From: a virus
Taxonomy: Duplodnaviria > Heunggongvirae > Uroviricota > Caudoviricetes
Strand: one strand, 5' to 3'
DNA: 16,048 nt
Virus record (IMG/VR): IMGVR_UViG_2548876955_000010
A program made the position numbers and the translations under genes. The number at the start of each line of letters is the position of its first letter. Position 1 is the stretch's first letter. Shown one piece after another: positions 1,317 to 16,048 of the stretch. The notes beneath the pieces are model-generated. The model was given only the letters and a program-made list of their open reading frames with translations. It was not told the origin of the DNA and ran no database searches.

Positions 1317-1568
1317 TCAAGTAAGATGACGTCTTGGTCTCGCTGATGCCTGGCGCTCAATCCAGCGATCAATTTCTTCCAGGTTGTAAAAGCATGGACT
1401 GTTATCCCATGGCATACCGTCATGAGCGACATGCTTATATTCCCTTCCTTCCATAAACGATTTTTCCCGGGCCTTTTTTAACGTACCTTTTTTTATTCCT
1501 TTCAGCGCAATTAACTGCTCTTCGGATACCCATTTGCCGGGAGAGACAATCATGATTACTTCGCTCAT
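1317..1568 (-). CDS. Small excisionase-like / recombination directionality protein (putative)
   Basis: 83-aa basic ORF immediately upstream of and co-oriented with int, the classic xis-int arrangement. No specific motif recognised; function inferred from position and size. Confidence 0.6.
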   Translation of the reverse strand: MSEVIMIVSPGKWVSEEQLIALKGIKKGTLKKAREKSFMEGREYKHVAHDGMPWDNSPCFYNLEEIDRWIERQASARPRRHLT

Positions 1569-1640
1569 CGATTTCTTTATCTCTTACATCAGACGAGCGC
1601 CGGTTGCAGAATACCAGTCACAACCGGCGACAGTTGAACA

Positions 1641-4112
1641 TTAAGAATCAGCCTGACTCGGGATCAGTTTTTGCCAGATAACTGAAACGTATTTTGCCTG
1701 GTAACGGGCGTCATCAAGTGCATTATGGCGCTCACCTTCGAATGGAATAGCCGTTCTGGCATCGAAGTCTATGGCTTTCCCCAGCTCAACGATTGTGCGT
1801 ACATCGCGATCGTTGTAGTAACGCCACGGGCAGGGGATCCCCTGCCGTTCGTATGAACGGCGCAAAATCGTGTTGTCGAAGTTGGCTCCATTTCCCCAGA
1901 CCTGAACAAAAAATTCACCGGAGTTTTCGTCGATAAATTCCCGCAATTGTAACAGTGCATCATCTAACGGGATTTCATCGGTCATAATGGCAGATTGCGC
2001 TTCGCGTGATTGCTTAAGCCACCATTTAATGGTGTCCCGATCAATGACTCCGCCAGCAGTTTCCAGATCGATAGTCTTACTAAATTCCGGTCCCATATCT
2101 CCGGTTTGCGGATCGAAAAATATTGCACCTATTGAGATGATCGGGGCATCAGGATTTTTTCCCATGGTTTCAAGGTCGATCATTAGATGGTCACACGTCC
2201 TGCTGGTGGATGTGATTTCGTGATGACCGTTCACCTTAATTGAGTGATCTGCCGTCTCGCCAGTTTCATTATCGCTATCGTGATGCTGATTGCCGCCAGT
2301 GTTCTCCTTGTGTGGATGTTCAGCGCCTTCCATTTCCTTCGGATCATCTTCCTGAACTTCAACCTGATACTCTTCATCGAATGTTTCCTGGTATGTTGCG
2401 TCGCCCATCACCGCGCCACAATCAGGGCAGTTGCCGCCGCCGGTCTGACCGCAGGCGGTGCAGACTTTTTCCACTTCCTGTTGCGCCACTGGTTCAGGCT
2501 GTTTCGTTTCTGGCTCGTTTTGTAACGCATTTGGGCTGTTTTGTTCCGCTTTTTGGTAGTTCCGTTCCGATTCATGCTGGTTCTGGTTCACAGAATCGCG
2601 GGTCTGGATCCCCTTAACCCATTTCGGATCATTCGGGTCACTAATCCCTTCAACAAATTCACCACGTGATGCAGCAAGCAACTTATCGGCGTCAGGCTGG
2701 CTGATATTGGCTGCCTGCATAATTTTGTTTACTTCGTCAGCGGTAACTTTTATCGGTTCTGGTTGTTCTGAATCTTCAGCGGTATCTACATTTTGCGGTA
2801 AGCCCGTGTATGTGCCATTTTTTCGGGCAAAATATTCTTCTTTAGTGATTTCAGTGGCGCCAGCAGCCAGTGCCTTATCCAGACCAGAAAGTTTGTTTGC
2901 GCGACCGTATTTTTCTCCGTCCTTATCTGCGAAGAGGAAATAGAACGGCCCCTCACGCTCTACAGATGGTTCAGCTTCCGGCGCGGTTTCATTTTTTGGG
3001 ATATCAGATACCTCAGTTTCCACTGCATCAGTTTGTGTTTCTGATGACTGGAGAACATCAACAGTGCCCAGGTCTGTTTCTTCATTCTCAAACACGCCCT
3101 TTGTCGTCAGGTATTCGCAGATATATTTGTTCAGTGCTACGGGTTCTTTGTGAATGTCGATCGGACGCTCACGGACAAGGCCAAAAATAGTTTGGCGGTC
3201 GTAGCGAAGGGCATCAGGCTGTTTGCGCATTGATGCCGAGATACGCTTCCAGTCTTCGCGGTCGTTGTCGATAACTTCTTTTTTTGCCCAGCGATGGATG
3301 CTGCCGTCAATGTTTCCGGCATCCACATCACCAGGCCAGAGAGCGTAGGCCAGTTCGTCATCCAGTGTTTTCCATGTCTGCTTGTATTCGCGATGAATGG
3401 CAGCAATGACCGGGCTGATTTTTCCTGTTGAATTTTCAGTGTACTGTTGATTGGCTCTGGTGCGGGCGAGATCAACAACAGACGTGTATTTTCCGGTTCC
3501 CTTGCGTTCACCTTCGCGACGTTTTTTCCAGATGCGCATCTCTGCCTGAATTTCGGGCCATTTAGCACCAGGAATACATTTATGCTTAACCCACCCAATG
3601 GCGTGCAACTTAAGCTCCGGATACATGGCGTTAACTTCTGGCATTTTCATCAACGCTTCAACGATATGTCCGTCGAATGTTGCCATGTCTTCCTGCAACA
3701 ATTCCTGTGCGCTAATAACCATATCAACGGTGATGTTTTCACATGTGTCGAACTTAACCATGACAGCGTTCTGTACTTCAGGGGCCAGCTTGTCAAAAGT
3801 GACGTTCATCGGATCGGATTCAGTCTCAACCGGGACAAAAGAAGCAGACTCCTCATCCCAGCGGTTTTCCTGCATATATTCAGCATCCCATGAATCGAGG
3901 GCAGGGCGGGGTATGCCAGGTTTATCCTCGCAGACAATAAATTTATAAGCGCAGTCCTGAGCAGCCGGATAATGTTCCAGGAATTGCCAGTGAAATTTTG
4001 CTCGAGCACGGCGTTCGTCGCCAGCTTCAATGGCTGTGGCTACAGCCACAGCGCCTTCTTCCCTTGTTGCCAGTTCGTCAGGAATAGCGGCGCAAATAAA
4101 GACTTTACTCAT
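1641..4112 (-). CDS. Exodeoxyribonuclease VIII-like protein (RecE/YdfE family), intact 823 aa, with C-terminal DnaQ-like DEDDh exonuclease-like region
   Basis: 823-aa ORF with GAGG RBS about 8 nt before ATG 4112. C-terminal part has MIDLETMG…H…ALDDAR-type acidic motifs typical of DEDD 3'-5' exonucleases. Cys cluster VCTACGQTGGGNCPDCG (C-x2-C-x8-C-x2-C). N-terminus resembles what I recall of the truncated K-12 Qin ydfE product. Confidence 0.85.
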   Translation of the reverse strand: MSKVFICAAIPDELATREEGAVAVATAIEAGDERRARAKFHWQFLEHYPAAQDCAYKFIVCEDKPGIPRPALDSWDAEYMQENRWDEESASFVPVETESDPMNVTFDKLAPEVQNAVMVKFDTCENITVDMVISAQELLQEDMATFDGHIVEALMKMPEVNAMYPELKLHAIGWVKHKCIPGAKWPEIQAEMRIWKKRREGERKGTGKYTSVVDLARTRANQQYTENSTGKISPVIAAIHREYKQTWKTLDDELAYALWPGDVDAGNIDGSIHRWAKKEVIDNDREDWKRISASMRKQPDALRYDRQTIFGLVRERPIDIHKEPVALNKYICEYLTTKGVFENEETDLGTVDVLQSSETQTDAVETEVSDIPKNETAPEAEPSVEREGPFYFLFADKDGEKYGRANKLSGLDKALAAGATEITKEEYFARKNGTYTGLPQNVDTAEDSEQPEPIKVTADEVNKIMQAANISQPDADKLLAASRGEFVEGISDPNDPKWVKGIQTRDSVNQNQHESERNYQKAEQNSPNALQNEPETKQPEPVAQQEVEKVCTACGQTGGGNCPDCGAVMGDATYQETFDEEYQVEVQEDDPKEMEGAEHPHKENTGGNQHHDSDNETGETADHSIKVNGHHEITSTSRTCDHLMIDLETMGKNPDAPIISIGAIFFDPQTGDMGPEFSKTIDLETAGGVIDRDTIKWWLKQSREAQSAIMTDEIPLDDALLQLREFIDENSGEFFVQVWGNGANFDNTILRRSYERQGIPCPWRYYNDRDVRTIVELGKAIDFDARTAIPFEGERHNALDDARYQAKYVSVIWQKLIPSQADS

Positions 4113-4751: not shown

Positions 4752-4809
4752 AAAAACGGCGGCAGAGCAGTCACGGAGTAAAACTGATACCGCCAAACGT
4801 CACCAGAAA
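4752..4809 (-). ncRNA. dicF: DicF small regulatory RNA (ftsZ-targeting sRNA of the dicB operon)
   Basis: Minus-strand sequence TTTCTGGTGACGTTTGGCGGTATCAGTTTTACTCCGTGACTGCTCTGCCGCCGTTTTT matches the DicF sequence as I recall it, including the GGCGG/CCGCC stem and 3' U-tract. Ends are approximate. Confidence 0.85.
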
Positions 4810-5068
4810 ATTGATAACAGAGGGCGTTGCAGCGGGGTTGTCACTTAAGCGTATGGTCAACCTGACAACCCGGTGTCATCAACGGGGAAGGAATAACCCC
4901 GCCATACTTACCGCCGCGCCATTTTGCGGGTTGCCACAACCGGAAGCGCACGGTCGAATTAAATTTAACGACACCGTACAGTGAGACGAACTTCGCCGTG
5001 CGCTTTCGTGTTGTGTGCCTGCTTTTAACCACGTCAGGCGAGGTGGTATCCTTAAAATCACCACAGTT

Positions 5069-5644
5069 TTAAGGATTCATTAAGCAATGTCGCAACCACC
5101 AATAAATCCGCTTAAGAACATGAAAATTGATTACTGGTATAAAGCGCTTACAGTTGTTGGCGCTGCGTTGTTTGTCTTTAATGGAACGTCTTTTTTTGAC
5201 AGATATCCCGTTGTTCCATTGGGTTTTTTGTCCTCCGGCATCTTTTTTATTGGTTTGGGGGAGTGGATTAATCACCCTCTCAAAGTGAGATTTATTGGTC
5301 CTGGAGTTTGGACTCGTGGATATAATCGTTCTTCGTGCGCACTCGGTATCATCTTCGACATACTTGGTTGTTTCCTGATTGTTACAGGAGTCGTCAAGTT
5401 CTTCTGATGTAAAACCGCAAATGGGGCACGTAACGGGAATTTTGAAAAGCGTTTCTCCGGGTTCCAGAACAAAATTTTCTGCGGTCTGATTTTGCTTCTC
5501 ATATTTGTGCTCCGCGTCATTGTGAGAGCACATTCTTATTCTGAGTGCCTGTTTAAACTCACTGAAGCTGAGAGCTTCTTCGCCTTCGGCAAGGCCTTCG
5601 AAGTATTCTTCGTAAGCCTTTTCCATGATTGTGTCGAAATCCAT
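5069..5644 (-). CDS. YdfB/YdfC-like protein (fused reading frame; C-terminal extent uncertain)
   Basis: Start ATG 5644 lies 2 nt after the ydfA-like stop. N-terminus MDFDTIMEKAYEEYFEGLAEGEEALSFSEFKQAL…HNDAEHKYEKQNQTAENFVLEPGETLFKIPVTCPICGF resembles YdfB followed by YdfC as one continuous frame. The distal about 65 aa are low-complexity K/R/N-rich and overlap a plus-strand membrane ORF, so the true 3' end is uncertain. Confidence 0.6.
   Translation of the reverse strand: MDFDTIMEKAYEEYFEGLAEGEEALSFSEFKQALRIRMCSHNDAEHKYEKQNQTAENFVLEPGETLFKIPVTCPICGFTSEELDDSCNNQETTKYVEDDTECARRTIISTSPNSRTNKSHFERVINPLPQTNKKDAGGQKTQWNNGISVKKRRSIKDKQRSANNCKRFIPVINFHVLKRIYWWLRHCLMNP
5087..5407 (+). CDS. Alternative call: hypothetical small membrane protein (about 3 predicted TM segments), antisense to the ydfB/C-like tail
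   Basis: 106-aa ORF with three hydrophobic stretches (ALTVVGAALFVF; LGFLSSGIFFIGLGEWI; ALGIIFDILGCFLIVTGVV). AAGGA about 12 nt upstream of the ATG. Conflicts with the minus-strand ORF; only one of the two is likely translated over this span. Confidence 0.3.
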   Translation: MSQPPINPLKNMKIDYWYKALTVVGAALFVFNGTSFFDRYPVVPLGFLSSGIFFIGLGEWINHPLKVRFIGPGVWTRGYNRSSCALGIIFDILGCFLIVTGVVKFF

Positions 5645-5645
5645 A

Positions 5646-5801
5646 TCACTCACCTGAGTTTCTTTCCAGCCAGCGACGGGCACCATTTTCGGTTTTAAAC
5701 GTTTTGCTTTTGGTATACGTCATCGCGGTGAACGTGCCGTCCTGGTTGGGGAACACGCCACATACCAGAGATTCGCTGTTGCCAAGATCGATAGTATCCA
5801 T
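5646..5801 (-). CDS. ydfA: YdfA-like small protein (51 aa)
   Basis: Internal ATG 5801 with GAGG 8 nt upstream. Translation MDTIDLGNSESLVCGVFPNQDGTFTAMTYTKSKTFKTENGARRWLERNSGE. First gene of the leftward operon downstream of the dicA-like repressor. Confidence 0.78.
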   Translation of the reverse strand: MDTIDLGNSESLVCGVFPNQDGTFTAMTYTKSKTFKTENGARRWLERNSGE

Positions 5802-5882
5802 GCTGACCTCATTTCCCCTTAACGCCGGGGTAGCGGAACTGTTTGCTGAGAACACCGTGCGGTGTCTTGATGGAGGTAATTT

Positions 5883-5936
5883 AGTTTTCTCATTATTTTT
5901 CGTCAAGGTTTTTTGATGAGAAAACTCAAGTATTGG
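5883..5936. promoter_or_regulatory. Putative DicA operator copies / leftward dicB-operon promoter region
   Basis: Palindromic element TGAGAAAACTCA at 5917..5928, within a 19-mer GAGAAAACTCAAGTATTGG (5918..5936) nearly repeated at 6454..6471. An inverted partial copy AGTTTTCTCAT at 5883..5893. Located between the dicA-like stop and the ydfA-like start. Confidence 0.5.
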
Positions 5937-5993: not shown

Positions 5994-6401
5994 TTATTGA
6001 TGCTTGTTGCGTTTGCGAGCCTCTAATAGCTCGGTGAACAGGCGATTAAAATTCTCAACGCGGGCGCGGAGTTCGCTGAGTTGTGCTTGTTGCTCTGATT
6101 TAGGAAGTGCGCGATACAAACGCAGCATCTCTAACTCATCTTCCGATAAGTCTAAGGCACTATCGAGTGAAACAGGGGGAGCTGGTGTTTTGTCCTCGTC
6201 GCCAAACAGTATCCAGGTTGGTGAACATTGCAATACCTCGGCGAGGCGATGCAAATTTTGCCCGCGCGGGGCTGTATGGTCACTTTCCCATAATGAAATT
6301 GATGAGCCAGATACGCCAGCAGCTTTGCTTAAACCGTTTTGACTTAAGCCTACCTGCTTACGTCTTTCTCTAATGCGTTGACCTAAAGTTTTCTCGTTCA
6401 T
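5994..6401 (-). CDS. dicA: DicA-like XRE-family HTH repressor (135 aa), prophage immunity repressor analogue
   Basis: Start at internal ATG 6401 (MNEKTLGQRIRERRKQVGLSQNGLSKAAGVS… HTH motif). Conserved …VLQCSPTWILFGDEDK… segment characteristic of DicA as I recall it. Divergent from the Cro-like gene. Confidence 0.85.
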   Translation of the reverse strand: MNEKTLGQRIRERRKQVGLSQNGLSKAAGVSGSSISLWESDHTAPRGQNLHRLAEVLQCSPTWILFGDEDKTPAPPVSLDSALDLSEDELEMLRLYRALPKSEQQAQLSELRARVENFNRLFTELLEARKRNKHQ

Positions 6402-8898: not shown

Positions 8899-11496
8899 AT
8901 GACACCTATAGAAAAAATCGCAAATTGGTCTAAAAATAAACCTGTCTGGTGGCGGCACTCGCTACGTCTTGCATTAAATAATGGAACATTGGAGCAAGAC
9001 GATTTCAATGAAATATTTAAGTTAGCTTGCATGGAGCATGGTTTGTTGGAGAAAAACGCACATTTTTCTGAATGTGAAAAACCGATAGATTTTACTGGCT
9101 ATGCTGCTGAACTACATGAGGTATCATTAAAATCAATTTATGACGTAAAAGGCGTTGGGATACTGGCAGAAAACCAAAAGCTCAATTTTTCTAACAATGG
9201 CCTGTTTATCGTTTATGGTGATAATGGCGCCGGAAAATCAAGCTATGCAAGCATTTTAAAAAATGCATGCTTAACCCGAGGGGATAGCCCTGCAATTATT
9301 GGGAATGTCTTTTCCAAACTGAACTTACCTCCTCAAGCAAAACTCGCTGTTTCATGTAATGGTGTGGATGAAATTCATTCATGGAATCAACAAGTATCAA
9401 GCATTGAATCATTAAAGTCTATTCGTATATTTGACAGTTCATCTGCAAGCCATTACGTAAACAAAGAAGATGCTCTGGGTTTTAAACCTGTTGGACTAAA
9501 TTTACTTACTGAGTTGGTTCGTGCCATCGGAAGTGTTAATGCTTTTATTAATGAAGATACTATGCCCGGAAATGGTCTTACTACATTGATGAAGCTACAG
9601 TCAGGCAGCGTTACCGCTAGCTTTGCCAACAATCTTTCGGCAAATACTTTTGAAGGAGACGTCGATAATCATATTGCTACTGAAGCTGACTTACAACGAA
9701 TAGAAAGTTTGAGAAGAGAAATAAATCAATACAAGTCCCAGACGGCTGAAACGATAAAAAGTGCGTTGGAACAGAATAAGAGAACCCTTTCTCCACTTAA
9801 AAGTTTTTGTGATAGTTCAATTAAATTATTAGGTAATAATGCTGTTTTAGAACTAACAAAGCTACAGGCCGAACAAGAACGAACACAACATGTTTCTGAA
9901 GAACTACGTAAAGCTACATTACAAAATCTACCTTTAGATACAGTTGCAGGTCTTAGCTGGCAGAATTTATGGAAAGCAGCTAAAAACTTTATTGAACAGG
10001 AAACACGAAAGCAAAATTTCCCGATGCAAAAAGGAGAGCCTTGCCCGCTTTGTTTGCAAGAGATTGGCTTGGAAAGTGAAAGCAGATTGGCTGCATTAGC
10101 ACAGTATTTAAGTGACGAAACGGCGCAGTCAGCAAAAATCGCAAAGTACAATGTTGATAATGCATTAAAATTATTGTCCTCACATTCTCTCGAGCTAACC
10201 CCTTACATTGCAGCTATTGAATTTCTTAATGATAAGCACCCACCTCTGGGTGATGACGTCAAAATGATGTTTGCGCTCCTAGCGGAAAGAAAGGGAAATA
10301 TGTTATTAGGTAATGTTGAAGATACACATGCTGCATTGAATACTGAATGTGTAAATCAGTTTAATAAAATCATTGAGGGTCTCGATCAAAGTATACTCAG
10401 TGTTAATTCGGATGCGGATTTTTTGCTGTTAATAAAAAGGGAAGAGATGGAGTTAGCACGACTGGAAGATATGAAATATGTGTTGGATAATAAATCCAAT
10501 ATTATTTCTAACATCAGGCGTCTCAAAATTATTAAAAAATTTGAAAATTTGCAGTCACAATGCGGAACAACATCAATTTCAACTTTGTCTTCTCAGATAA
10601 GTCGTTCTGGTGTTGTTGAGCCGTTGATTTCAGCATTTAGCGAGGAACTGCGTAATTTTGGTTTTGAACGCTTCAAAGTGAAAGTTGATACCCGAAATCG
10701 TTCTGGTGAGCAGCAGTTTAAATTATCATTGGCTGATGAAGATGATGTGACTATTGCTACACTCGGAGTTGCAAGTGAGGGGGAACAACGATGTATTGCT
10801 ATTGCCAGTTTCCTTGCCGAAATGAAGGCTGATGCAAGAAAGTCGGCCGTTATATTTGATGATCCAGTTAACTCATTAAGTCATGAGTGGAGCAGCCGGG
10901 TTGCAAGACGCCTAGCCTTAGAATCGAAAAATAGACAGGTTATTGTCTTAACTCATAATATAGTTTTTTACAAACTACTGCTGGAAGTCGCTGAAGAGAT
11001 AAATGCAGAATGCTCCTGTATTGCTCTTGAACGCTCCCGTAAACTTGCAGGCTTAGTCAGGGAGTCAGCCCCTTGGGAAGCAATGACTACGCGAAGCAGA
11101 TACAAAGAACTTAAAGTTAAACTACAAGAGCTTAAACGATTAGATAAAAGGGATGAGACAACAGTTGCTGAGTTTCGTTTGGCATCTTGTCAGTTTTACG
11201 GATTTCTACGCGAGGCTTGGGAAAGGCTTGTTGAAGAGAAGCTTCTTAATAAAGTAGTGACTCGTTTTGAAAGAGGCATCTCTACTCAGCGATTAGCTCG
11301 ATTAAAAGATATCAATCAGGATGATCTTGATAAGATTGATCGTGGAATGTCTAAATGTAGCACTTATTTTAGAGGGCATGATAGCGCGCCTGCTGTCGGT
11401 GATCCTTATCCAATGATTGCTGAAATAGAGCAGGATTTAGATGCGATTAACATATTCTTAACCGAGCTTGAGAGCCCTTCCAGAAAAAGAAATTAA
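8899..11496 (+). CDS. Large P-loop ATPase (ABC/AAA_13-like) with coiled-coil CxxC insertion and distinct C-terminal domain; candidate RloC/PrrC-like abortive-infection / anticodon-nuclease protein
   Basis: 865-aa ORF with AAGGA RBS 6 nt before ATG 8899. Walker A GDNGAGKS (nt 9217..9240). Walker B-like AVIFDDP (nt 10846..10866) followed by VLTHN. More than 500 aa between the two motifs, K/E/Q-rich with CPLC (nt 10042..10053). C-terminal about 170 aa contain LREAWE and YFRGHDS. Gene and flanks are visibly AT-rich relative to neighbouring prophage genes. Function is inference. Confidence 0.85.
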   Translation: MTPIEKIANWSKNKPVWWRHSLRLALNNGTLEQDDFNEIFKLACMEHGLLEKNAHFSECEKPIDFTGYAAELHEVSLKSIYDVKGVGILAENQKLNFSNNGLFIVYGDNGAGKSSYASILKNACLTRGDSPAIIGNVFSKLNLPPQAKLAVSCNGVDEIHSWNQQVSSIESLKSIRIFDSSSASHYVNKEDALGFKPVGLNLLTELVRAIGSVNAFINEDTMPGNGLTTLMKLQSGSVTASFANNLSANTFEGDVDNHIATEADLQRIESLRREINQYKSQTAETIKSALEQNKRTLSPLKSFCDSSIKLLGNNAVLELTKLQAEQERTQHVSEELRKATLQNLPLDTVAGLSWQNLWKAAKNFIEQETRKQNFPMQKGEPCPLCLQEIGLESESRLAALAQYLSDETAQSAKIAKYNVDNALKLLSSHSLELTPYIAAIEFLNDKHPPLGDDVKMMFALLAERKGNMLLGNVEDTHAALNTECVNQFNKIIEGLDQSILSVNSDADFLLLIKREEMELARLEDMKYVLDNKSNIISNIRRLKIIKKFENLQSQCGTTSISTLSSQISRSGVVEPLISAFSEELRNFGFERFKVKVDTRNRSGEQQFKLSLADEDDVTIATLGVASEGEQRCIAIASFLAEMKADARKSAVIFDDPVNSLSHEWSSRVARRLALESKNRQVIVLTHNIVFYKLLLEVAEEINAECSCIALERSRKLAGLVRESAPWEAMTTRSRYKELKVKLQELKRLDKRDETTVAEFRLASCQFYGFLREAWERLVEEKLLNKVVTRFERGISTQRLARLKDINQDDLDKIDRGMSKCSTYFRGHDSAPAVGDPYPMIAEIEQDLDAINIFLTELESPSRKRN

Positions 11497-11901: not shown

Positions 11902-12055
11902 TTTCATATTGGCGAGGTAAAGGTAGTTAAGTAGAATGGCTGCGGGTGCTTGAGGCTATCTGCCTCGGGCATGAACACCAAAGGCAGATAGAGAAAAGCC
12001 CCAGTTAACATTACGCGTCCTGCAAGACGCTTAATATTAATCTGAGGCCAATTTC

Positions 12056-12268
12056 ATGCTAGACACATGTAGGTTAGCCTCTTACGTGCCGGAAGGCAAG
12101 GAGAAGCAGGCTATGAAGCAGCAAAAGGCGATGTTAATCGCCCTGATCGTCATCTGTTTAACCGTCATAGTGACGGCACTGGTAACGAGGAAAGACCTCT
12201 GCGAGGTACGAATCCGAACCGGCCAGACGGAGGTCGCTGTCTTCACAGCTTACGAACCTGAGGAGTAA
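12056..12268 (+). CDS. Mok-like overlapping frame (N-terminally extended Hok, MokC-type)
   Basis: In-frame upstream ATG at 12056 gives MLDTCRLASYVPEGKEKQA + Hok; this resembles the MokC/HokC arrangement. Confidence 0.45.
   Translation: MLDTCRLASYVPEGKEKQAMKQQKAMLIALIVICLTVIVTALVTRKDLCEVRIRTGQTEVAVFTAYEPEE
12113..12268 (+). CDS. hok: Hok/Gef-family type I toxin (51 aa membrane peptide)
   Basis: MKQQKAMLIALIVICLTVIVTALVTRKDLCEVRIRTGQTEVAVFTAYEPEE carries the Hok/Gef signature (LIVIC…LVTRKDLCEV…GQTEVA…AYE). Which hok paralogue it is cannot be resolved. Confidence 0.88.
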   Translation: MKQQKAMLIALIVICLTVIVTALVTRKDLCEVRIRTGQTEVAVFTAYEPEE

Positions 12269-15532: not shown

Positions 15533-15832
15533 AAAAATTCCTTAATACTGATAACTTGGCGCACTATACACACGTTCCTGAAGAAAGCTATAGTTTTTTG
15601 ATGGGGTTGAAGATGGCTGGATGTCTAAAATAAACATTGCTTCATATGTTCAACTATGCGTTAATGATTGCGTCGGTTTGAAGAACAGACGATATACGAA
15701 GTAGTTTACTAAAGCAGTTCTCATTTCAGGTGTTATTCACTTATTCCTTCTTTGAGTCTCTCCAATTAAGTACGAAGTCGTTTCTGTTATGCAAACCATT
15801 TATGCCGAAAGGCTCAAGTTAAGGAATGTAGA

Positions 15833-16048
15833 ATGTCAAATAAAATGACTGGTTTAGTAAAATGGTTTAACGCTGATAAAGGTTTCGGCTTTATTTCTCC
15901 TGTTGATGGTAGTAAAGATGTGTTTGTGCATTTTTCTGCGATTCAGAATGATAATTATCGAACCTTATTTGAAGGTCAAAAGGTTACCTTCTCTATAGAG
16001 AGTGGTGCTAAAGGTCCTGCAGCAGCAAATGTCATCATTACTGATTAA
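15833..16048 (+). CDS. cspB: Cold-shock protein CspB-like (71 aa)
   Basis: [71 protein letters not shown] with RNP1-like KGFGFI and RNP2-like VFVHF motifs. Long 5' leader (about 300 nt) typical of csp genes. Stop TAA at 16046..16048. Confidence 0.9.

Follow-up and report, generated by a model that had tools for sequence, protein, structure and literature searches.

Small membrane proteins that are expressed in the lysogen from genes beside the repressor are familiar from rexB of lambda, sieB of P22 and lambda, and the exclusion proteins of the HK97 gp15 type, and antisense devices acting at the choice between lysis and lysogeny are represented by pRE/anti-cro, OOP and paQ of lambda and by pR/pL of coliphage 186. 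Here we describe a locus that shares features with both groups, in a stretch of 16,048 nucleotides (nt) of viral DNA (Caudoviricetes; IMG/VR record IMGVR_UViG_2548876955_000010), referred to in its full length as the window. At 5069..5644 its minus strand carries an open reading frame (ORF) of 191 codons that belongs to the early-left (dicBF) operon and holds, in antisense, an entire plus-strand gene (5087..5407) for a membrane protein of 106 amino acids (aa) with three helices. Comparative data lend good support to the view that both frames are selected, which would make them an antisense overlapping gene pair of a rare kind. The explanation that we favour as a whole, in which the plus gene would be cargo expressed in the lysogen and the minus frame would be kept open for the transit of ribosomes, we hold to be rather probable.

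As with prophage morons and other lysogen-expressed membrane proteins, a small membrane-protein gene is found here at the immunity switch, and exchangeable cargo lies behind a conserved block. The protein, however, resembles the products of rexB, sieB and the HK97 gp15 type neither in sequence nor in fold, its gene lies antisense inside an ORF of the early operon and not between genes, and it is only in position that the locus resembles morons and exclusion genes. With the devices of lambda and 186 the locus has in common that a lysogeny-side transcript would run head-on into the early lytic transcript at the switch; it differs in having a complete protein-coding gene as antisense partner, across which a long ORF is maintained on the lytic-side strand.

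Genes embedded in antisense have been reported in Escherichia coli O157:H7, including nog1, asa, laoB, ano and others (PMC5960689, PMC6294744, PMC9927249, bioRxiv 10.1101/2020.11.18.388249). There as here, the whole of one protein-coding ORF lies antisense within a second one. The O157:H7 examples are supported chiefly by expression data and concern young, narrowly distributed ORFs, whereas the evidence presented below is evolutionary and comes from dozens of diverged lineages; moreover, the embedded gene is in our case the old and conserved one, and the overlapping part of the host ORF appears to be kept open without amino-acid constraint. Literature searches returned no description of this locus or of this antisense pair.

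The membrane-protein gene

The two ORFs had been singled out by an earlier note made from the letters of the DNA, which offered a choice between a fused ydfB-ydfC gene with an unusual tail and a small membrane protein encoded antisense. The membrane protein is now strongly supported as a gene by its homologues, by the ratio of nonsynonymous to synonymous substitution rates (dN/dS), by 101 close relatives and by 487 clusters of family members. Its ORF, with the length and the three helices that had been read from it, was recovered as described, and an AlphaFold2 model (mean predicted local distance difference test, pLDDT, 86.8) shows the helices spanning residues 17-32, 42-62 and 85-105, with residues 65-79 folded into a beta hairpin.

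Searched by tblastn, the plus protein finds counterparts in phage mEp390 (39 % identity) and in gp33 of Burkholderia phage Bcep176 (45 %), and homologues of ~100-110 aa with 34-88 % identity comprise, besides these two, proteins of Yersinia, Herminiimonas and Reinekea. A large protein database yielded 60 relatives of very uniform length (~100-110 aa), which stem from these three genera and from many metagenomes, while a profile search of the family recovered 487 clusters at 50 % identity, mostly of 100-115 aa, with 218 at E < 1e-10. Two runs of residues are invariant in the family alignment, D-Y-W-Y-K close to the N-terminus and G-L-G-E-W-I-N-H-P behind helix 2, and all of these columns are present in the window protein, which by its sequence belongs to this unnamed family of small membrane proteins with the signature DYWYK ... 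GLGEWINHP. For the plus protein, Pfam returned nothing above threshold (only TMEM238 and DUF7103, at E > 0.1), searches of PADLOC, NCBIfam and PHROG gave no matches, and Foldseek comparison of the model with BFVD and PDB gave none below E = 0.03 or above a template modelling (TM) score of 0.5. Membership in SieB or another known superinfection-exclusion or defence family was considered and rejected, the protein having no homology to Pfam SieB or to the PADLOC models.

The plus ORF is almost certainly a genuine gene with its frame under amino-acid selection, because plus-frame dN/dS amounts to 0.12-0.18 between four enterobacterial lineages (51-84 % protein identity) and because substitutions are biased towards third codon positions: the window and its relative L008, for example, differ at plus codon positions 1, 2 and 3 by 11, 7 and 35 changes, respectively. 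The 101 close relatives show zero indels and zero plus-frame stops over the gene, and their single-nucleotide polymorphisms (SNPs) are likewise biased to plus third positions.

Decay and unusual settings of the gene were observed as well. In Shigella flexneri (L037) the membrane ORF is degraded, with an early stop after 'MSQPPINPLRT', and the cassette can therefore decay. Non-phage family members (L044 from Reinekea, L042 from Herminiimonas and L025-L027 from an Arcobacter metagenome-assembled genome) are found within series of small ORFs on one strand, including a ParD-like gene, or next to DUF5677; these series look like an integron cassette array, and one Arcobacter genome holds three identical copies of the membrane gene.

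Selection on the minus frame

The stop-free run of 191 codons from 5644 stands as the earlier note gave it. In the ORF list the frame extends over 5069..5686 (205 aa from an upstream ATG; phrog_35040), and gene callers take the ATG at 5686; the in-frame ATG at 5644, with AGGTGAG 7 nt upstream, lies one base past the ydfA stop and corresponds to the start of ydfB in K-12. In L008 the minus ORF begins directly at the ydfA-type ribosome-binding site, and good sites are also found at mEp390 gp39 and others. Three parts can be distinguished: codons 1-34 (5543..5644, minus strand; MDFDT...FKQAL) form a recombinant 5' end that is near-identical to K-12 ydfB and matched by phrog_2061 over residues 1-34; codons 35-79 (5408..5542) are a cassette-specific leader outside the overlap; and the remaining 112 codons (5069..5407) form a stop-free tail that mirrors the membrane gene and 18 nt of the leader of that gene. 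The overlap with the plus ORF thus comprises minus codons 80-186 and is longer than the last ~65 aa that had been taken to mirror the hydrophobic gene, as the acidic stretch SEELDDSCNNQ...TECARR already mirrors helix 3.

Assignment of the minus ORF to YdfB (K-12 b1572, 42 aa) was tried and rejected: residues 1-34 and the place after ydfA match, but the frame diverges from codon 35 and runs for 191 codons. Judged by its sequence it is a recombinant that has only the N-terminus of YdfB. The proposed ydfB-ydfC fusion is wrong because ydfC is not in the window, where a search for MQKREPVIIAPDYTDDELYEW... (K-12 b1573, 72 aa) found no ydfC-like sequence between the ydfB remnant and DicF; the ydfB codons are instead joined in frame to a different conserved ORF. 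Downstream of the cassette, ydfC occurs only in the variants P0065, P0068 and P0070 from E. coli prophages, whose minus ORFs lack a stop after the mirror tail and run in frame into ydfC, reaching 245-271 aa.

The leader carries the motif F.IP..CPICGF.S (5405..5446), which in the form [FL]..IP..CP[IV]CGF.S is kept in four lineages (the window, L008, L009-L011 and L012-L013) over DNA whose plus strand is noncoding. Changes within the motif are synonymous in the minus frame (ATT/ATC/ATA, CCC/CCA/CCT, TGC/TGT, GGT/GGA, TTT/TTC), dS in the leader is 1-2.7 as compared to a dN of 0.35-0.7, and the SNPs of the close relatives comprise 3 synonymous and 1 nonsynonymous. A second leader type, PGSV..GW, was found in the mEp390 group, with a ratio of the proportions of nonsynonymous and synonymous differences (pN/pS) of 0.2-0.5. 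At the level of sequence comparison, these data demonstrate purifying selection on the minus leader. A profile of minus ORFs recovered 29 proteins; a 151-aa group among them, from prophages of Enterobacter and Klebsiella, shares homology with mEp390 gp39 and has the leader M.YEFFERL..PGSV.IDRE.STVTL.GW. Every minus ORF in the viral-contig set described below begins with one of two related leaders, PGSV..GW or P.G..VKPLYDKCP.CGCD, and the CPICGF of the window is a variant of the latter.

For the zinc-binding-like motif C-x-H...CPIC that had been noticed in this part, the comparison gives a divided answer: CPxC is conserved and C-x-H is not. A zinc ribbon or rubredoxin-like knuckle was rejected, since only one CPxC is kept and L008, L009 and L012 lack the C-x-H seen in the window; the Pfam model RUBY_RBDX reached E = 0.13 on the minus ORF, far below the cut-off, and the PGSV..GW leader type is devoid of any Cys. 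Two Yersinia enterocolitica loci (L012 and L013) differ by A6/A5 in a homopolymer, which causes a frameshift upstream of CPICGF and leaves one strain without a minus-ORF start, its membrane gene being intact.

Within the overlap, the codon starts of both frames are 2 mod 3, and the two ORFs are codon-aligned reverse complements. Of the antisense frames, this one has the greatest tendency to be open by chance, as stops on the opposite strand arise from TTA, CTA and TCA only. From local codon usage, the probability that 106 codons leave it open is P = 0.004, and the window shows 0 antisense stops as compared to 4.7 expected. In the window, L008, L009-L011 and L012-L013 the antisense frame is open across the whole membrane gene and ends 18-39 nt past its start codon. 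An earlier scan of viral contigs had returned near-identical E. coli prophages only; with a ranking by the mEp390 protein, the contigs yielded 36 distinct membrane proteins. Both full ORFs are kept in 28 of the 36, with a stop-free antisense frame over the whole gene, and the other eight have 1-4 antisense stops; in seven of these the minus ORF ends 12-126 nt inside the 5' end of the membrane gene, and in the eighth (L137) the membrane ORF itself is truncated.

For stop statistics, 17 representatives with <70 % protein identity were compared with 99 equal-sized control windows from other long ORFs of the same loci, again with expectations from local codon usage. Against ~65 antisense stops expected in the representatives, 10 were seen, and 12 of the 17 membrane genes were stop-free as compared to 8/99 controls (Fisher 8e-8, Mann-Whitney 2e-7). 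All three critical codons are depleted, TTA accounting for 3.3 % of Leu codons vs 14.9 % in the background (4.5x, p = 4e-8), CTA for 0.4 % vs 7.6 % (19x, p = 1e-6), and TCA for 1.4 % of Ser codons vs 22.8 % (16x, p = 6e-7). A generic bias against A-ending codons or TA was rejected as the cause, as GCA, ACA and CCA show no change, GGA is enriched, and the decrease of GTA and ATA is only ~2-fold. Leu codons at conserved positions moreover switch freely among CTT, CTC, TTG and CTG, and there is therefore neither inherited stasis nor adaptation to the major codon CTG. In non-phage homologues (GC 0.37-0.50), TTA and CTA make up 30 % of Leu codons and mostly 3-12 antisense stops are present; two exceptions with 0 and 1 have a GC content at third positions (GC3) of 0.54-0.61, a member at GC 0.28 has 17, and otherwise only higher-GC members are open. 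These comparisons of sequence establish an avoidance of stops in the minus frame that is both statistically strong and specific.

The encoded amino acids of the overlap behave differently. Minus-frame omega (dN/dS) there is 0.6-1.7, and in the mEp390-type group minus-frame pN >= pS. Plus-frame pS in the overlap of this group (0.33-0.79) equals that of the adjacent leader in the same pairs (0.23-0.94), and therefore plus-synonymous sites, that is, minus first positions, evolve neutrally. Purifying selection on both amino-acid sequences within the overlap was thus rejected, as plus omega is 0.12-0.25 and minus pN >= pS, which leaves only the avoidance of stops. A selected basic tail was rejected as well: net charges between -4 and +14 were observed, which do not differ from those in the antisense of non-phage homologues, and the composition is therefore not selected. 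AlphaFold gave a pLDDT of 48 for the minus ORF overall and below 50 for residues 43-171, which, with an alignment of 13 rows, is weak evidence for disorder. By all sequence measures used here, selection does not act on the tail as a protein. The alternatives between which the earlier note had asked to choose consequently do not compete, as both strands are selected, the plus strand at the level of amino acids and the minus strand by selection on the leader and by avoidance of stops.

Locus, relatives and the upstream block

The window, from a lambdoid prophage inserted beside rspB, covers the immunity region and the early-left arm, with int, xis, an exonuclease gene, ydfD, dicB, DicF, the minus ORF, ydfA and a DicA-like repressor gene on the minus strand and, beyond the repressor, cro/dicC, ydaT and replication genes on the plus strand. 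In this operon the minus ORF follows ydfA (5646..5801, minus strand; DUF1391, Pfam PF07151, E = 9e-28, also called by PGAP), which is itself preceded by a promoter-like site TTGACG-17-TAAATT (5878..5906, minus strand) that would transcribe the minus ORF and corresponds in position to the dicBF promoter region of K-12, downstream of dicA. The repressor gene (5994..6401, minus strand; helix-turn-helix type, PGAP) is convergent with the membrane gene, and the small RNA (sRNA) DicF (4757..4808, minus strand; Rfam RF00039, 72.5 bits) follows downstream in the early-left transcript.

The K-12 Qin operon ydfA-ydfB-ydfC-dicF-dicB agrees with the window in operon, gene order and strand, and the two have ydfA, the first 34 codons of ydfB, DicF, dicB and ydfD in common. 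In contrast to Qin, the window has the cassette in place of the last 8 ydfB codons and all of ydfC; in the alignment, near-identity through ydfA and ydfB codons 1-34 gives way to an unrelated segment of ~500 bp, and similarity resumes shortly before the DicF region. The cassette is present in 806/5426 complete E. coli genomes (~15 %), in 786 of these at >=99 % identity, and also in the free phage HannyBb. Most genomes have 5543..5644 labelled by PGAP as a truncated ydfB pseudogene, a few have the 191-aa minus ORF as a 'hypothetical protein', and HannyBb is annotated with the 205-aa version (CDS0038). The plus ORF is annotated in none of the records examined, RefSeq E. coli genomes included.

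All phage loci examined have the pair in their immunity region, where it is antisense to an early lytic operon. Two arrangements were found: left of the repressor and convergent with it, as in the window, L008-L013 and L145, where the synteny of repressor and membrane gene recurs; or, as in mEp390, between cro and cII with the membrane gene on the strand of the S24 repressor. In mEp390 (L006), the annotated gp39 (3456..3911) is the counterpart of the minus ORF, and the membrane gene is hidden opposite (3495..3815, TTG start) and unannotated; unlike in the window, the pair lies between cro and cII and the leader is of the PGSV..GW type. Unannotated membrane genes probably also lie opposite the 151-aa 'hypothetical proteins' P0072-P0082 in many Enterobacter and Klebsiella prophages. 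The Bcep176 gp33 protein is a true homologue of the membrane protein; unlike the window, its annotated ORF has 4 antisense stops (3 over the homologous part) and no spanning ORF.

The membrane gene of the left-arm type is preceded by an invariant block of 36 nt, GCCTGCTTTTAACCACGTCAGGCGAGGTGGTATCCT (5017..5052, plus strand), a candidate promoter in which TGgTATCCT (5044..5052) would be the extended -10. The block is invariant across lineages whose proteins are ~50 % identical; its pattern GCCTG.CTTTT.ACCAC.TCAGGC...GTGGTATCCT, made of two interleaved inverted repeats, was found together with a covarying hairpin in 94 phage records, where it stands before a different small plus-strand ORF in each phage group. 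Between block and start codon lies an AT-rich hairpin, CCTTAAAA-N9-TTTTAAGG (5050..5074), which contains the minus-ORF stop (5069..5071), with AAGGA, resembling a Shine-Dalgarno (SD) sequence, at 5071..5075. Six of the nine stem pairs are changed on both sides, a covariation score reached in 0/500 shuffles, and the fold z-scores are -2.5 and -2.1. As minus-strand RNA, block and hairpin fold as two hairpins one base apart, a layout that may resemble the put RNA of HK022. Rfam, searched at relaxed threshold over 4820..5120, gave no family for either element.

Sites of the block elsewhere include 2509..2576 in SfV (L200), 1518..1589 in phiES15 (L201), 1533..1600 in mEp460 (L202) and a site from 1502 in PPompW (L203). 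In SfV, phiES15 and mEp460 the block is followed by the hairpin, an SD sequence and the ATG of a different small plus-strand ORF, and the same block before different small ORFs would accordingly be a portable upstream module for cargo genes directed against the early-left operon. Directly after the block, SfV has an unannotated ORF of 81 aa (2577..2822, plus strand) and phiES15 one of 95 aa (1590..1877, plus strand), each with a good SD sequence and antisense to the early-left operon; from these features, both are probably missed cargo genes.

Further observations in the window concern a sok/CssrC antisense RNA (11944..12118, plus strand; Rfam, 119 bits), pointing to a hok/sok-type module in the prophage; a cspA 5' untranslated region thermoregulator (15672..16048, plus strand; Rfam) cut by the window end; and an ORF of 865 aa (8899..11496, plus strand; AAA family ATPase by PGAP) after the replication and DUF977 genes, which may be an accessory or defence gene. 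The sole plus-strand terminator-like hairpin 3' of the membrane gene (5584..5603) is weak (6 pairs, 3 of them G-C) and lies inside the ydfB-derived codons.

Explanations for the open frame

For promoter activity, the timing of expression, the function of the membrane protein and the purpose of the open frame we infer the following. The pair would form a cassette of two genes in antisense that is passed among temperate phages of enterobacteria. Because it always lies antisense to the early lytic operon beside the repressor gene, its plus gene would be cargo (a 'moron') for an inner-membrane protein, expressed in the lysogen while the DicA-type repressor silences the dicBF operon; upon induction, opposing transcription would silence the membrane gene. 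By position and type, the membrane protein would most likely serve the prophage in a function at the membrane, such as superinfection exclusion or abortive infection. The minus ORF would be translated as part of the early-left operon, starting with 34 ydfB codons and continuing through 45 leader codons with CPxCG into 112 mirror codons. Given that the membrane gene avoids TTA, CTA and TCA and that selection does not act on the protein sequence of the tail, the selected trait of the tail would be an uninterrupted transit of ribosomes across the antisense of the membrane gene. The open frame may thereby keep the early transcript translated past the cassette and shield it from Rho, RNases and pairing with the membrane-gene mRNA.

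Several points weigh against this explanation. As to the own promoter and terminator expected of a moron, the extended -10-like block is present, but a consensus promoter scan did not call it, and the scan called no terminator 3' of the plus gene; if TATCCT were the -10, transcription would start inside the hairpin. For the membrane protein, searches among defence, Pfam, NCBIfam and PHROG families and among known folds remained without a match. Minus-strand RNA over the overlap has a C/G ratio of ~1, which is no C-rich signature of Rho loading, and the conserved leader peptides are not accounted for by a pure ribosome-transit model. The cargo of SfV (81 aa), phiES15 (95 aa) and mEp460 (66 aa) has 1-5 antisense stops without a spanning ORF, and a generic need to counter polarity therefore cannot be the whole reason. 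Finally, the minus frame is broken by the A-run frameshift in one Yersinia strain, and in two singleton E. coli alleles (5245 T>A and 5339 G>T, among the 101 close relatives) by stops that are conservative changes in the plus protein. The check for stops in relatives that the earlier note had suggested thus came out clean for the plus frame and with these two exceptions for the minus frame.

Among the rivals of ribosome transit, true dual coding survives best. It holds that the full-length minus protein is functional, consisting of the leader and a long disordered tail that is free in sequence while its presence and length matter. Although we think it unlikely, it is a serious rival because there is no C-over-G bias, the other cargo lacks a spanning ORF and the leaders are unexplained. 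The purifying selection on the leader peptides speaks for it, as do the fact that leaders of both related types (CPxCG and PGSV..GW) are always followed by the same tail mirroring the membrane gene, the restriction of a spanning antisense ORF to the membrane gene among all cargo behind the block, and a fairly constant tail length, with the ORF usually ending 24-39 nt past the start of the membrane gene. It is harder to reconcile with a tail that conserves neither amino acids nor charge (which varies as in the non-phage antisense) and has a pLDDT <50, or with the eight distinct proteins in which the ORF stops inside the membrane gene, seven of them 12-126 nt before its 5' end. In addition, some ORFs run in frame into ydfC, neither end point nor length being fixed, and the leader of the window is fused behind 34 foreign ydfB codons.

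Less probable by our estimate is control by sense and antisense RNA, either similar to type I toxin-antitoxin systems or as a switch of convergent promoters like that of coliphage 186, in which both transcripts would silence each other and the open frame would be secondary. The constant position of the membrane gene, antisense to the early lytic operon at the switch and left of the repressor or between cro and cII, would suit this idea, and so would a small and hydrophobic product and the sok-type antisense RNA elsewhere in the window. However, both the stop-codon avoidance and the conserved leader peptides are left unexplained by it, and non-phage family members stand alone without an antisense partner. 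A type I system proper, with a toxin of less than ~60 aa and an antisense sRNA, was rejected: the product is far larger, with 106 aa and three helices, and no sRNA family match, discrete antisense sRNA or terminator was found in 4820..5120.

A slightly smaller chance still is left to the view that only the membrane gene is functional, the minus frame being a shadow ORF open by chance or codon bias and the ydfB stub a pseudogene. Codon-aligned antisense frames are indeed most often open by chance (8 % of control windows are stop-free), minus omega is ~1 in the overlap, PGAP calls ydfB a pseudogene, and two singleton alleles carry minus-frame stops. Against this stands a frame that is stop-free in 12/17 lineages of <70 % identity with saturated synonymous sites, a depletion confined to the three antisense-stop codons, non-phage homologues that at the same GC are full of stops, and minus-frame amino acids that are conserved outside the overlap; pure chance, in particular, is effectively excluded. 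The same holds for coding by the minus frame only (an extended YdfB or a YdfB-YdfC fusion, with the plus ORF as its shadow): it is the longest ORF and the one chosen by gene callers (HannyBb CDS0038, WP_000344958.1, phrog_35040, mEp390 gp39), but plus dN/dS is 0.12-0.18 with substitutions on plus third positions, the plus protein has hundreds of homologues, some with an antisense frame full of stops, and ydfC is absent from the window.

That phages actively select a stop-free opposite frame, so that codon choice in the membrane gene is constrained for a sequence-indifferent 'bridge' of ~110 codons behind the leader, is a claim for which we see the balance as even. If true, selection would act on the ORF as a conduit or disordered appendage and not on the encoded sequence, and few loci in prokaryotic viruses would offer comparative evidence for a long antisense overlap as good as this. 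Such overlaps are controversial in bacteria and phages, the evidence usually consisting of expression alone, whereas here it is evolutionary, stems from many independent lineages and includes an internal control in the non-phage homologues without an antisense ORF. Three layers of selection can be separated, namely, on amino acids (one strand), on the leader only (the other strand) and purely on the avoidance of stops (the overlap). The cassette is also found in many Enterobacter, Klebsiella, Yersinia and Salmonella-type prophages, and its membrane gene is almost never called in RefSeq or phage annotation, as gene finders pick the longer mirror ORF or the label of a ydfB pseudogene. Beyond the pair itself, the locus brings to light what may be a portable upstream block delivering varied small cargo into early-left operons, as well as an uncharacterised membrane protein at the lysis-lysogeny switch.

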